A DNA stretch of 64,000 nt, taken from Ignavibacteriota bacterium. GTDB lineage: Bacteria > Bacteroidota > Ignavibacteria > UBA10030. Of this stretch, positions 12,278 to 41,149 are shown one piece after another. The translations under genes were made by a program, and so were the position numbers. The notes beneath the pieces are model-generated. The model saw nothing but the letters and a program-made list of their open reading frames with translations. It was not told where the DNA came from and did not search any database. The stretch spans positions 2,720,001 to 2,784,000 of the forward strand of contig OY969585.1 of NCBI GenBank assembly GCA_963701295.1. The letters are read 5' to 3'. Position 1 is the stretch's first letter. Each line of letters begins with the position of its first letter.

Positions 12278-13225
12278 TTATGTTAAACTTTGATACTTAT
12301 ATTGCAATTCACGACTTACCTCTTCGTCATGATGCATTTGTTGAATAAGTTTGTCTACGGAGTCGAACTTCCATTCATCCCTTAATCGTTGTAAGAAGTC
12401 GATCCGAAGATCGAATCCATAAATACTCTGGCTGAAATCAAGAATATTTACTTCAAGAATACACTTTCCATCCGTATGAAACGTTGGACGTATACCAATG
12501 CTTGCCATCCCAAAGTATCTGTTTTCACGAACTCGAACCTGCACAAAGTAGATGCCATTCTTTGGCACGATTTTTTTTTGTGAAGCAAGTTCTACATTTG
12601 CAGTAGGATAACCAAGAGATCGTCCTCTCCGATCACCCGGAACGACTTTCCCAAACAACGCATAAGGTCGGCCTAAAAACCCAGCACCTACTTCTACAGA
12701 TCCATTCAGCAATTCATTTCGGATCATAGAGCTATTCACTGGAATACCGTTATGCTGAAACTGCTCAATATGTACGACCTCAAATTCATATTCTTTTCCA
12801 AGTTGTACAAGCGCTTCAATATTTCCTTCGCGATTTCTTCCCCAGTGATGATCATATCCTTCCACAATAACGCTGATACCTATTCCGCCAATAAGATATT
12901 TCACGTAAAAATCACGAAAACCTTGCTGCGAAAACACTTTGTTAAATTCAATCACAAAAAGCCAATCTGCCCCTAATTGGTCACATAACTCTTGTCGCTC
13001 CTGCAATGTTGTGAGGAGTTTCATATCCATGCTTGCCGTATCCAGTACTTCACGCGGATGCGGTTCGAAAGTCACAACAACACTTCGGCCCTGACGTCTC
13101 TTTGCAAGCTCTACAGCTTTCCCGATTATTTTTTGATGAGCAAGATGCACACCATCAAATGTTCCGACTGTTAAAATAGAATTTTTATCAAACGGAATAT
13201 CTTCAATGTGTCGAACAAGCTTCAT
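12278..13225 (-). CDS. ribF: Bifunctional riboflavin kinase/FAD synthetase
   Basis: GTFDGVHLAHQ, TFEPHP, GRSLGYPTAN, G.RPTF. Confidence 0.97.
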   Translation of the reverse strand: MKLVRHIEDIPFDKNSILTVGTFDGVHLAHQKIIGKAVELAKRRQGRSVVVTFEPHPREVLDTASMDMKLLTTLQERQELCDQLGADWLFVIEFNKVFSQQGFRDFYVKYLIGGIGISVIVEGYDHHWGRNREGNIEALVQLGKEYEFEVVHIEQFQHNGIPVNSSMIRNELLNGSVEVGAGFLGRPYALFGKVVPGDRRGRSLGYPTANVELASQKKIVPKNGIYFVQVRVRENRYFGMASIGIRPTFHTDGKCILEVNILDFSQSIYGFDLRIDFLQRLRDEWKFDSVDKLIQQMHHDEEVSRELQYKYQSLT

Positions 13226-36620: not shown

Positions 36621-36678
36621 AATAAAACATTCATCCGTCATAATTTTAGACGGGAGAAACCAACTCAAGGAACTTCAG

Positions 36679-36752
36679 TACCCCCGAGAGGATTCGAACC
36701 TCCGACAAACGGTTTAGGAAACCGCTGCTCTATCCATCTGAGCTACGGGGGC
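36679..36752 (-). tRNA. tRNA-Arg(CCT)
   Basis: GCCCCCG/CGGGGGT acceptor, GCGGT-TTCCTAA-ACCGT, GGTTCGAATCC. Confidence 0.96.
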
Positions 36753-36820
36753 GTTTATTTATTTTGATTTCTTTCTAAATTCGCTGATTATTTTTCAACT
36801 TGGATATATTCAATCACCAT

Positions 36821-36862
36821 TAGTACCAAGGTTGGCAAGTATAGTGCCAACTTTAGTGCCAA
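36821..36862. repeat. Three TAGTRCCAA direct repeats, integrase arm-site-like
   Basis: TAGTACCAA 36821, TAGTGCCAA 36842 and 36854, partial inverted TTGGCA 36832; between the tRNA and the integrase remnant. Confidence 0.65.
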
Positions 36863-37128
36863 GTGTAATTCTTCTCTTCACCTCAAATACAATAGCTCAT
36901 CAAGTCATCCTGGCATTCCGAAGCCCTGCAATTCAAGATGAACTATTTGTCTGAAATTTGTTTAAAGTATATGGAATTTTTGAATGATTTCATTGCTATT
37001 AAAAAATACGAAACTTTACTCCCCTTTGCAAGCTAATCCAAGATACAATAGATTTGTCATTCAGTTTATCTCTTAAAAGGCTTTTAAAGAGATTTCTGAT
37101 ATCTTTCCTAAAAAAAATCTTCCCTGAT

Positions 37129-37232
37129 AAAGCATTCATTTCTTTTCGGAGGTGCTGAGGCATTGGGTGTGCATAAATTTCTATCGTTTAACTCGAACTA
37201 TGGCCTAATAATTTTGAGACCGCATATAACCC
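37129..37232 (-). pseudogene. Tyrosine recombinase/integrase C-terminal remnant
   Basis: Reads GLYAVSKLLGHSSS*TIEIYAHPMPQHLRKEMNAL, the box II LLGH...Y motif broken by TAA at 37190-37188. Confidence 0.8.
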
Positions 37233-37698: not shown

Positions 37699-38069
37699 CT
37701 ATTCTGGATCAACCAGTGAAACAAATTGCACGGGATTTTCCTGGCGTTCTTTTCTTGTTGCAACCCTTCTCCGAATCGTTTCAATTGTCTCTCTCATCTC
37801 TTGAGCTCTGACAGGATTGGCTGAATGAATATCCATCTCTTCCGGCGGAATGAAATTACTAATATAGACCTGTTCCTCAATCCAATTCAACACCCTAAAC
37901 CCTTCATTGTTTGAATCATGATCAGCGAGATCGTTATCCAGAGTTAATTCCGTACTAGTCCGGTTTCAAGCAGTGTTACGACTTCTTTCACGCTCATGAC
38001 CCGGATCCAGCCATCATCAGCTGAATGTTCTGCATCAAGTGGTCTTGCATCATCCAAATAAACTTTCAT
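37699..38069 (-). pseudogene. Frameshifted cyclic-phosphate-processing receiver-domain gene
   Basis: MKVYLDDAR..GWIRV..EV..LL.G.V / frameshift near 37953 / ELTLDNDL..G..VLNWIEE..HSANP...M; GAAAGGA RBS. Confidence 0.75.
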
Positions 38070-38361: not shown

Positions 38362-38448
38362 TTTTAACAAACCGCACACGAACGAATCCTCCAGGCGAAC
38401 AGGCACATTCGGATTATTCGTTCCGTCGGCTTGAGCGCTTAGTTAGGT
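38362..38448 (-). mobile_element. attC-like site with intact R''/L'' arm and degraded L'/R' arm
   Basis: Minus strand ACCTAAC-TAAGC-GCTCAAGC-CGAC just after the C45 stop; internal stem AACGAAT/ATTCGTT. Confidence 0.7.
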
Positions 38449-38486
38449 GGCATGCGGCACAACATTTTTCATTTCTTTTAATCTAT

Positions 38487-40250
38487 TTATTTTATAATCT
38501 TTTCGAGCTTCTGAATTCTCTCATTCATGTAATCCGGTATCCAGTACCGTCTATGAATATCGAGTGCCTTTTTTGCAAACTCAGCAGCACGATCCATATT
38601 CCCGAGGGAATGATATATGAGTGCAAGATGTTCATCTGTCTCGACCTGATAATATTCGCATTGGATATTGCTTTCAAGAGCGCGCAAATATTCAACGACC
38701 GCCTCGTCATATTTCTTCTCAGCTTCGAGTGCACGACCTTTATTATAATGACCCGTTATAATATCCGGGTATTTTTCAATCAGCTTATCAACATAGACCA
38801 TTGACTCGGATGGAAGTTTATAGTAATCACGATACGTCCAGGCCAAAAAGTCCAGGCTAAAATAATTCTCAATCTTTGAGTTACCAATGGAAGTTACCAA
38901 AGATCGGACATCGGTACTGTCTCGCCAATCACACGCTTCGATTTTTTCATATAGTTCATTCAACTTAGAAATAAATGGATCATTCAATCTTGAATCGGCT
39001 TCTTTATAGATGCTCACTTCACCAGTAATGTAATTATACTTTAACCATCTATTCCATGCAGCAAAGTGAGCATAGCAGGTAAAGTAAATCGTGGAATCAG
39101 CTAGATCAAAGATTACGGATTGATCCGTCTCATAATTGTGAAGAGATTCAAGATATACAGGTATACTATCGGTATAATGATAAAAATCGGTATTACTCAG
39201 GATGCCAATCGCTTCATTAACCATATTCGTGTCCGTGGTATCGATCAATTCGGCGAATTTGATTTCTCTGCACACATCATGAAATTGACCGGAATAAATT
39301 GTTTCACTCTTTTTTCCCAAATCTTTCGAGACAGTTCTATTTGCAACAAATTGATAATCGTTGATGTGAGTTGTTGCTTTCGTGGGCCCAATAAAATCAC
39401 AAACGACAGCTTGTTGTTCCTTGCTGCTTGATATTGTATATATTAAGCCAATGGGAAATGAAATAGTATGAATGAGCGAATCAACTTCTTTGAGATTATG
39501 TGTTTCTGTAATTAATTTACTTTTCTCCGAATAAAGGCTACAATGAGTTTTATCGAATCCATATGGATTATTATTACCGTTCTCCGATAGCGATATTCCG
39601 GATTCATTGAATGCAGTTGTAATCATCAATACAGAAACAAACCCAACATCCGTGAACTTTTGCTTTCCTGTTATAGCATAATTTACAACGACTGGATATT
39701 TTGAAATCAAGTTCAAAGGCATCGGTTGGTCAAGATTGTGACAATGATATATGTGGCGACCTTTTTTAATCACGATCGCTTCACAACGGTTAGAATACAG
39801 ATCAGAGATGACTTGAATTTCCCGGAAGAAAGATTCCGGCATGCCGGAACCTTCCGCTGCGCCCCGTATTTGATCATTTATATCAGCAGGGAGCCGGTCC
39901 GCGTATGTATTGATCTTGTGTCTCCATACAATTCCGCCGAACAGATTGGCAAATATTTTTTGGTACCAAGGGAGGTAATGAATCTCGTTCTCCATCATGT
40001 GTTCTTTGAATTTCTCGAACTCCTTATGCATTGCTACGAGTTCGCTTTTTAAGAGCGTGCCGTATTGCAAACCTATTTCGTAATTAGTTCCTTGAAGATA
40101 GAGAAACGGAATTCCATAGTGAATCTCTTTGTAGCCGTGTCCAAGACGGATTGTTTTAGTGGAATCTTCTTGCGCCTTCCCATGATGAATGAATGTGAGA
40201 CTTATTAAGAATATGTATAGATAATACATACGATGCGTTGTTATAGTCAT
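38487..40250 (-). CDS. Secreted C45-family Ntn hydrolase/acyltransferase with C-terminal TPRs
   Basis: Signal peptide; L.L.G..YEIG.QYG; N-R-C-EAIV putative autoproteolysis Cys; HNLD; NESGIS; TPR-like helices; start moved to 40250. Confidence 0.75.
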   Translation of the reverse strand: MTITTHRMYYLYIFLISLTFIHHGKAQEDSTKTIRLGHGYKEIHYGIPFLYLQGTNYEIGLQYGTLLKSELVAMHKEFEKFKEHMMENEIHYLPWYQKIFANLFGGIVWRHKINTYADRLPADINDQIRGAAEGSGMPESFFREIQVISDLYSNRCEAIVIKKGRHIYHCHNLDQPMPLNLISKYPVVVNYAITGKQKFTDVGFVSVLMITTAFNESGISLSENGNNNPYGFDKTHCSLYSEKSKLITETHNLKEVDSLIHTISFPIGLIYTISSSKEQQAVVCDFIGPTKATTHINDYQFVANRTVSKDLGKKSETIYSGQFHDVCREIKFAELIDTTDTNMVNEAIGILSNTDFYHYTDSIPVYLESLHNYETDQSVIFDLADSTIYFTCYAHFAAWNRWLKYNYITGEVSIYKEADSRLNDPFISKLNELYEKIEACDWRDSTDVRSLVTSIGNSKIENYFSLDFLAWTYRDYYKLPSESMVYVDKLIEKYPDIITGHYNKGRALEAEKKYDEAVVEYLRALESNIQCEYYQVETDEHLALIYHSLGNMDRAAEFAKKALDIHRRYWIPDYMNERIQKLEKIIK

Positions 40251-40305
40251 TGTTTTTAACTTACCGATGTTCAATAATTTACTGATTGTTATGCCGCATG
40301 ATGCC

Positions 40306-40335
40306 ACCTAACGGATTGGCGCTAAGCTGCAGCGC
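40306..40335 (-). mobile_element. attC L'/R' half-site at the 5' boundary of the C45 cassette
   Basis: Minus strand GCA-GCTTAGC-GCCAATCC-GTTAGGT (GTTRRRY). Confidence 0.7.
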
Positions 40336-40375
40336 TGCAAACTTTCAAAATGCACAAACGCCACGCCCTGTGTTT

Positions 40376-41149
40376 CTAAATGCCGAAGATTTTATAGGAG
40401 TAACCTACTGAAATTATCAGATTTCCTGTGTGACTCGTTCCATCTTGGGCATAGTTCTGCACGTTGGTTAATCCGTAGAGTCCGCGCACGTTCAACGAAA
40501 CACTTGCTCGGAGCGTGACAGGGAGAATGATGCCTGCGCCTCCCGTAATACCGGCATTCACTTTATGGATACTGCTTGTTACGTCGTTGCTCGCATCGAA
40601 GGATTCAGGCGGCACCTGAATATATCCGCCGTTTCCGTCGGGCATGACCAACGGAGTTCCATTCTTGTCGATATAAATTGAGCTGGTCCCACTCGTCTTC
40701 TCGGTTGCGCTCAGTAGGAACCCAACATACGGCCCGCCATTTATATCGAATGAGATATCACCAAGTCCGAAGGTGTACTTAGCCAGTACAGGTATCTCGA
40801 TGTAGTTGAGGATCGACATATTTTTGAAATTCGAGTAATAATAGCCACCGGAGGGTAAAGGCGGAAGATTAGTAGAAGTTATGGGTTGGATTCCATTTCT
40901 CTGTCCACCTTGTCCGTCGAAATTAATTTGCGGCTCTATAGAAAAATTGTCGGCCATTGCAAACTCGAAAGTTATTCCGAAGTTAGGCGCAAGTCGTGAC
41001 GTATAGCCCTGGCTGATTTCGTTGTTTCCTCCGCTGAGATCTGGAACACTTAAGCCGCTTTGAATGCCGATTTCCACTTGCGCAGGAGATGTTTGAAACA
41101 TTAAAATGTAAATTATTATGAACAGGATAAACGAGATCGATCTTTTCAT
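40376..41149 (-). CDS. Outer-membrane beta-barrel (porin/PorT-like) protein
   Basis: Signal peptide, LNYIEIPVLAKY, GGPYVGFLL, C-terminal ISVGYSY strand. Confidence 0.85.
   Translation of the reverse strand: MKRSISFILFIIIYILMFQTSPAQVEIGIQSGLSVPDLSGGNNEISQGYTSRLAPNFGITFEFAMADNFSIEPQINFDGQGGQRNGIQPITSTNLPPLPSGGYYYSNFKNMSILNYIEIPVLAKYTFGLGDISFDINGGPYVGFLLSATEKTSGTSSIYIDKNGTPLVMPDGNGGYIQVPPESFDASNDVTSSIHKVNAGITGGAGIILPVTLRASVSLNVRGLYGLTNVQNYAQDGTSHTGNLIISVGYSYKIFGI

Follow-up and report, generated by a model that had tools for sequence, protein, structure and literature searches.

How did a single gene, bordered by integron-type motifs and lacking a complete recombination site on either side, come to lie at the edge of a tRNA island, and could it still move? 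The gene lies in a 64,000-nucleotide stretch of DNA, hereafter the window, from an Ignavibacteriota bacterium (contig OY969585.1, positions 2,720,001 to 2,784,000). The host genome (G000) is one contig of 3,643,693 bases; coordinates preceded by C1 refer to the contig, all others to the window. From the letters alone, the initial annotation had proposed an orphan 1.9-kb cassette carrying a C45-TPR gene and stranded in a tRNA island.

Anatomy of the cassette and its cut sites

The features of the locus are as follows.

36678..36752, minus strand: tRNA-Arg(CCT), target of the island
36712..37040, minus strand: island end, made of the att core (5' ~41 nt of the tRNA) and a conserved arm region
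37125..37229, minus strand: C-terminal remnant of the island tyrosine integrase, with an internal stop (tblastn)
37947..38069, minus strand: short piece of a former gene for a cyclic-phosphate-processing receiver domain (PF20274 over 32/88 positions, E 1.4e-4, under the cut-off)
38362..38417, minus strand: DNA with hairpin potential that adjoins the cut attC, for the most part an unrelated repeat and not attC (z -2.15)
38418..38448, minus strand: 5' remnant of the cassette's own attC, with R'', spacer and L'' kept and the rest, including L', absent (nhmmer)
38442..38464, minus strand: 3' arm of the extended terminal inverted repeat, pairing with 40287-40312
38442..40312, minus strand: integron gene cassette of 1,871 bp, delimited by the G of R' and the C of R''
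38487..40250, minus strand: intact 587-aa gene, with a predicted N-terminal hydrophobic helix, C45/NAAA-type Ntn-hydrolase domain and C-terminal TPRs
40287..40312, minus strand: 5' arm of the extended terminal inverted repeat, made of R' and ~16 more paired bases, with a 3-nt bulge
40306..40360, minus strand: 3' remnant of the preceding cassette's attC, made of the end of the variable region, L', spacer and R' (nhmmer)
40376..41149, minus strand: outer-membrane beta-barrel gene (PF13568), not a cassette, 125 nt upstream of the cassette gene

The L'/R' pair reported before the gene, and the R''/L'' pair with an extrahelical C reported after it, are all in place. On the minus strand, the upstream end consists of L' GCTTAGC (40321-40327), an 8-nt spacer and R' GTTAGGT (40306-40312); the downstream end consists of R'' ACCTAAC (38442-38448), a 5-nt spacer and L'' GCTCAAGC (38429-38436), which contains the extra C. 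The cores fit R' GTTRRRY at the start and the complementary R'' RYYYAAC at the end. Of the two L boxes with the extrahelical base, the downstream L'' is the cassette's own and the upstream L' comes from a neighbour. A single gene fills the cassette in the same direction as the att sites; its ATG lies 62 nt past the G of R', and 38 nt separate the stop codon from R''.

Both flanking attC sites had been described as incomplete, and only their inner halves were found. Upstream, similarity to the attC family stops at 40360-40366 (BLAST), leaving ~55 nt of attC, with the crossover point between 40312 and 40311. Downstream, similarity stops at 38417-38418, leaving ~30 nt of attC after R''. No L' follows on this side, and a complete, foldable attC of the cassette's own is not present at the locus. 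Joined in silico, the two halves form a canonical bottom-strand attC stem with a single-base bulge, like the complete site of the homologous locus L054; folded with its own downstream DNA, the cassette pairs at R and forms no L box. The two sites folded alone gave z values of -2.15 (downstream) and 0.01 (upstream). A stretch resembling 38362..38417 is present without attC in a relative, G019, and a 17-nt match occurs at C1:2,503,934. We considered and rejected the downstream DNA as a short attC missing only L': 8/10 arm positions match (shuffle p 0.035), and the same stretch is attC-less in G019.

The cassette ends are complementary past the core, over a longer stretch than the initial annotation had claimed: ~23 bp, with a 3-nt bulge and one wobble. 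The inner part of this stem is conserved in cassette homologs, at 63% protein identity and across attC families. Among 94 cassettes of the genome delimited by strict motifs, the median pairing score was 26 for own ends and 12 for mismatched ends (1,500 pairs), and 54/94 reached a score of at least 24. The window cassette ranks 4th, as its own ends score 34 and the best score against any other cassette end is 24 (n=186). Since own ends outscore other ends, the end pairing is genuine, and its extension beyond the core is the norm in this attC family. Eleven of the 94 cassettes are as long as the window cassette or longer. Two further ideas about the stem were set aside, the first as speculation. 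The reading of its inner part as a second, inward R''/R' pair, with the gene in the attC loop, has the AAC/GTT ends but no following L boxes, and the same test is passed by 3/78 cassettes, two of them AT-rich. A link to a "clamped" empty-cassette family was rejected, because the stems there differ in sequence.

The integron system of the genome

A related attC family was looked for in the genome, its absence having been named at the outset as an argument against a cassette. Among the sites yielded by pattern scans, 74 were complete and 82 looked partial. Of the complete ones, 72 (140-235 nt; the window halves were not in the training set) were used to build a profile, which gave 191 matches at E<=1, and 182 attC sites in 33 loci at E<=0.02 after split matches were merged. 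The upstream half matches this profile with E 6.1e-11 (positions 107-158 of 159) and the downstream half with E 0.0053 (positions 2-32; nhmmer). Covariation is seen between the bases next to the L boxes of complete sites, with 44/72 sites belonging to three fully paired types. Rfam returned the tRNA and one weak chance match only, and no attC family. The reading as an integrated gene cassette is supported by this genome-wide family, by a cognate intI and by homologs of near-identical length lying between complete attC sites.

The claim that the window lacks intI is confirmed, and no intI or attI match, nor any intI pseudogene (tblastn), was found near it. The genome carries one intI (C1:3,566,706-3,567,662; TIGR02249, 453 bits against a cut-off of 265; no stops), located 806 kb from the window cassette; 13/16 genomes of the genus have intI. 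The term "orphan" consequently holds locally but not for the genome, which has an intI and, in the same island, an attI-headed array 59-74 kb away.

In the complete integron, a site containing repeats precedes the first cassette and is assigned as attI by its position. Copies of attI without intI occur at six places, each heading an array (C1:224,156; 1,796,957; 2,464,805; 2,834,102; 3,172,044 and 3,446,563, the last shortened), and three worn copies map to C1:1,210,419, 1,406,890 and 2,388,010. Two satellite copies retain ~270-300 bp of the intI-attI spacer. An identical 1,786-bp cassette is found in the 224-kb and 2,465-kb arrays next to different neighbours, and identical 251- and 271-bp units likewise occur in different arrays (145 inter-site stretches compared). 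The attI motif is present in 7/15 genus relatives; three stretches from G009 and G008 (L090-L092) feature the motif and attC matches, with no intI match within the stretch. The attI is described as undetermined for most integrons and was left out of the search of one survey (PMC4889954). CALINs can be mobilised in trans (10.1101/2025.06.18.660453), and integrons have already been reported in Ignavibacteriae (10.1101/2022.02.28.482270). Our literature search, mostly outside subscription journals, returned no description of multiple attI per integrase.

Most attC loci (27/33, adjacent loci not being independent) are oriented with replication, the origin being set at dnaA (977 kb); such array orientation has been described for sedentary integrons (PMC11023631). 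The sole large array against replication, C1:224,000-262,000, lies in locally reversed GC skew; we take it to have been inverted or to have arrived recently, which would make it a natural case for testing the orientation rule. Of the 19 merged attC regions, 7 have a tRNA within 5 kb, against 3.4 expected (p 0.03). A tRNA-Met 3' fragment and a conserved hairpin occur just beyond array ends at C1:1,811,437, 2,400,906, 2,419,950, 2,440,894, 2,819,480 and 3,133,053, which suggests that an element targeting tRNA-Met bounds the arrays or moves them. Two other observations concern isolated pieces of the system. A 45-aa piece 98% identical to the IntI C-terminus lies far from the integron (C1:581,744-581,878), and a second solo cassette of 471 bp, with the same right-half and left-half flanks as the window cassette, is found at C1:2,271,092-2,271,671.

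Homologs and encoded protein

The cassette protein has 74 homologs of similar length. The distribution of the gene is patchy: 10/251 genomes of the order carry it, G000 counted, and 1/12 genus relatives. When the same gene was looked for in other arrays, it was found there, flanked by complete attC sites; the closest homologs (82-89% protein identity) lie between complete sites in arrays. Our scan covered 24 homolog loci and, in addition, L038 and L039 (26 in all), several of which are near-copies and some of which end at a contig edge. The attC family of G000 occurs beside the gene in five of them, L054, L064, L066, L067 and L038, and complete sites are present in L054 and L067. L054 encodes a protein 86% identical to that of the window, has attC on both sides, and features a 1,870-bp cassette with 83% DNA identity over the aligned span; L066 is its near-copy. 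L064 has four attC sites upstream, L067 has five downstream, and L038, from G010, has seven (63% protein identity). In L063 (63%), the gene is flanked by attC-like sites that, judged by eye, belong to another family. The other 20 of the 26 loci gave no attC match. In L038, short GC-rich palindromic inserts interrupt the L boxes of both flanking attC sites (L038:10330-10388 and ~12280-12310), which we regard as a different means by which the same cassette can be locked.

A tree of 22 rows (17 family loci and 5 outgroup proteins, the partial L064 and L067 being left out) interleaves the four cassette copies with attC-less copies. The window copy and L054 are nested among four attC-less copies with support 96/97, in a tree with a weakly supported backbone. 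By eye, L047-L049 keep worn versions of the cassette end motifs. These patterns would fit an old cassette that lost its sites several times, repeated capture being the alternative reading. The window gene is intact, and its dN/dS against L054 is 0.15, a value that spans the whole shared history and not the period after stranding alone.

Homolog alignment favours ATG 40250 over GTG 40307 as the start of the gene. The AlphaFold model, based on a 32-row alignment, has a pLDDT of 89, and the top ten Foldseek matches are isopenicillin-N acyltransferase (IAT), acid ceramidase and NAAA (IAT 2x1d, E 6.2e-14). In alignment, Cys156 corresponds to the residue that opens the NAAA beta chain, and Asp174 to NAAA Asp145; Cys156, Asn172, Asp174 and Asn215 are invariant in all 32 aligned proteins. 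The initial label of C45-TPR gene is upheld by the predicted Ntn fold and by the homologs: PF03417 is matched by 13 of the 32 alignment members, though not by the window protein at E<=0.1. The model supports a C45/NAAA-fold Ntn hydrolase with a TPR tail. Like peptidase C45/IAT (PDB 2X1C-E), NAAA (6DXW) and acid ceramidase (5U81), the protein has the Ntn fold, an alpha chain before the invariant Cys and N-x-D; it differs from them in its identity of 11-16%, in the His at the position equivalent to Arg142, and in the added hydrophobic helix and TPRs. A triad of Cys, Arg and Asp has been proposed for NAAA (PMC3432061). Here the Arg142 position is occupied by His171, as it is by His in 14/32 aligned proteins, so that the activity of this predicted hydrolase is unproven. 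The His-for-Arg change in the GRN-x-D motif of Cys-type Ntn hydrolases marks a whole sub-branch (14/32), in which neither the Cys nor the Asp varies. The protein is predicted to be exported, to cleave itself and to act on acyl amides; by likeness to NAAA and IAT, we would guess at a fatty-acyl amide as substrate. Our literature search, mostly outside subscription journals, returned no relevant match on bacterial C45-TPR proteins.

Origin and fate of the locus

The claim that a 1.9-kb cassette is stranded in a tRNA island is borne out by two findings: the 5' half of the tRNA is repeated, and the site is empty in G004 and G010. The 5' ~41 nt of tRNA-Arg are repeated at C1:2,839,283 (near-perfect) and C1:2,884,842 (worn), and in G004 and G010 the tRNA runs straight into DNA matching C1:2,884,842 onward. 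These empty sites indicate that ~128 kb were inserted in G000, as two blocks of ~83 and ~45 kb; the stretches of five other relatives carry different DNA at the tRNA-Arg site. The composite island extends from window position 36712, inside the 5' half of tRNA-Arg(CCT), to C1:2,884,881, with the cassette at its edge. The island end at 36712..37040 is 69% identical to C1:2,839,283-2,839,562 and 75-79% identical to G007, G009 and G011. The integrase remnant matches the island integrase over 36 aa (56%, E 5.9e-7, tblastn); an intact integrase occupies its position in G007 and G009, and an intact 351-aa tyrosine recombinase is encoded at C1:2,838,109-2,839,164. The island is rich in glycoside hydrolases and TonB-type genes. 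Its first block holds the window's glycoside-hydrolase genes and a 10-site array (C1:2,819,652-2,834,102) with its own attI at 2,834,102. Tandem accretion, tRNA direct repeats, integrases and an empty site in relatives are all shared with known tRNA-targeting tyrosine-integrase islands. In contrast to typical ones, the repeat is the tRNA 5' half, the island lies upstream of the intact tRNA, and the integrase near the end is a remnant.

The 1.7 kb separating the cassette from the tRNA contain gene remnants only. On the other side, no profile match to attC was found upstream of the beta-barrel gene, and no terminator-like match lies between this gene and the cassette gene. A promoter scan was at chance (11 found against 11.9 expected), Bacteroidota-type promoters being outside the scan. 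Read-through transcription from the beta-barrel gene into the cassette is possible, as judged from this arrangement. No RNA run is among the listed sequencing runs that contain the sequence. In G019 (L036:2400-18700), 16 kb separate this beta-barrel gene from tRNA-Arg, and a run of small co-directional accessory genes lies in between; several of these resemble genes near G000 arrays, and none of the stretch matches this attC family.

By descent, 38442-40312 is an integron cassette, and its attC family is that of the genome itself; without a complete attC, it is likely immobile. It is probably all that remains of a small array that deletions eroded at the margin of the tRNA-Arg island, and it is predicted to be immobile there. 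The crossover in IntI recombination falls after the G of R'; apart from this offset, the attC travels whole with its cassette. An excised cassette therefore brings only the bases 3' of the R' G, and the 55 nt of upstream attC must come from another cassette. The integron recombination pathway is outlined elsewhere (PMC4889954). This L' arm of a former neighbour argues for an array remnant and against a lone insertion by IntI at a secondary site (attG), which would have produced a SALIN whose distal attC was lost later.

The array remnant would have formed as follows. The gene would have arrived in, or as part of, an array, with IntI acting in trans or inside the island. Deletions from both sides would then have ended inside two attC sites, removing the neighbours. 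Without the downstream L' and the upstream R''/L'', no recombinogenic bottom-strand hairpin should form locally. The intact gene may be reached by read-through transcription from the beta-barrel gene and its product exported; the protein may undergo self-cleavage ahead of Cys156, its chemistry may be that of an acyl-amide hydrolase or an acyltransferase, and its TPRs may bind a partner. Truncation of terminal sites is common in G000. The 3' end is missing from the last site in 11/23 loci, compared with 8/135 internal sites, a crude count, with 4 of these 11 "left-only" sites extending as far as profile position 117-144; the first site of attI-less loci lacks its 5' end in 6/14 cases, compared with 11/135. 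As a deletion from outside can leave only inner halves, cut terminal sites show erosion and not a special mechanism. The same array was not found at this place in any relative examined, so the lost neighbours and the order of events are reconstructions.

The cassette might instead be the far end of the attI-headed array C1:2,819,652-2,834,102, split by a 59-kb block (mostly glycoside-hydrolase genes) that entered one attC. Both lie in the same island and on the same strand, and that array ends left-only while the window's upstream site is right-only. We consider this unlikely, since 76 nt of a 231-nt site type and ~60 nt here would leave ~95 nt missing, the left half there is followed by a tRNA-Met-type remnant present at five other array-side places, and in G019 the distance from the beta-barrel gene to tRNA-Arg is already 16 kb, taken up by other cargo.

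A lone attG insertion is still less probable. IntI is present in trans, and attG insertions have been shown experimentally and SALINs reported as common (10.1101/2022.09.11.507474). Upstream of the crossover G, however, L' and ~40 more nt of the family attC are found (E 6.1e-11), which is not expected of attG. Insertion into an older stranded attC would be needed, which amounts to the array model; the upstream L' arm largely refutes the attG reading.

Just as doubtful is the idea that the gene and its two inner half-sites are a unit moved other than by normal IntI recombination, either by recombination in AT-rich attC interiors or through a long stem formed across the gene. The second solo cassette with matching flanks (C1:2,271,092) speaks for such a unit, as does the unusually long terminal stem, the inner part of which is conserved as described above. 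On the other hand, G000 has no second copy of the window cassette, none of the 26 homolog loci has matching half-site flanks, breakpoints vary among half-sites, and no target duplication was seen.

It is scarcely credible that the junctions are an assembly artefact or the motifs products of chance: no independent read or contig bridges either junction (eight short identical pieces among the matches listed for one DNA run, none bridging), but G000 is one contig, 99.3% complete, in which the cassette is single-copy, and chance is excluded by the profile E-values, the end pairing and the homologs in arrays.

Among known systems, the locus shares with sedentary chromosomal integrons the R'/R'' cores, the L boxes with an extra base and one gene per cassette, and the genome shares with them a homogeneous, genome-specific attC family with a cognate intI. 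In sedentary integrons the bottom strand is on the leading-strand template (PMC11023631), as it is here. In contrast, the window locus has no complete attC, its intI is 806 kb and the nearest attI 74 kb away, and the attC sites of the family are long (~150-230 nt). A complete integron needs intI and attI beside the array, and neither is present. A CALIN is made up of two or more attC sites within 4 kb, away from any intI; with the profile used here, the locus shows two partial attC sites 1.9 kb apart with no intI nearby. Like CALINs, it has attC-derived sites without a nearby intI in a genome with IntI elsewhere; it differs in having only two sites, both partial. An isolated cassette far from intI also characterizes SALIN/attG insertions, which as described (10.1101/2022.09.11.507474) have a genomic GWT upstream junction, whereas the junction here is an attC remnant and the downstream attC is incomplete.

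The cassette is likely settling in as an ordinary gene, the ordinary outcome of a known process; our literature search, mostly outside subscription journals, returned no relevant match on cassette domestication by attC loss. Taken alone, it is one more example among thousands of isolated cassettes. Its value is that of a test case for whether integrase-less cassettes lead to stable genes, an open point in PMC4889954, where such cassettes are proposed as a step between integron capture and genome stabilisation. The C45-TPR series comprises complete cassettes in arrays of two attC families, the half-site orphan described here and attC-less residents with worn end motifs, so that a single gene family spans the mobile, half-stranded and attC-less states. 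Arrays headed by an intI-less attI and sharing identical cassettes point to a route to CALINs through platform duplication and service in trans; because IntegronFinder matches only class 1-3 attI, this route is invisible to it. The satellite attI network lies outside the window, and the genome context is a better lead than the cassette itself. Tentatively, the locus may be a snapshot of domestication in a distributed integron, in which one IntI would serve at least six integrase-less attI platforms, and cassettes would leak into tRNA islands, lose their outer attC halves and end up as fixed genes. Beyond the cassette itself, the leads to follow are the domestication series and the network of satellite attI sites.
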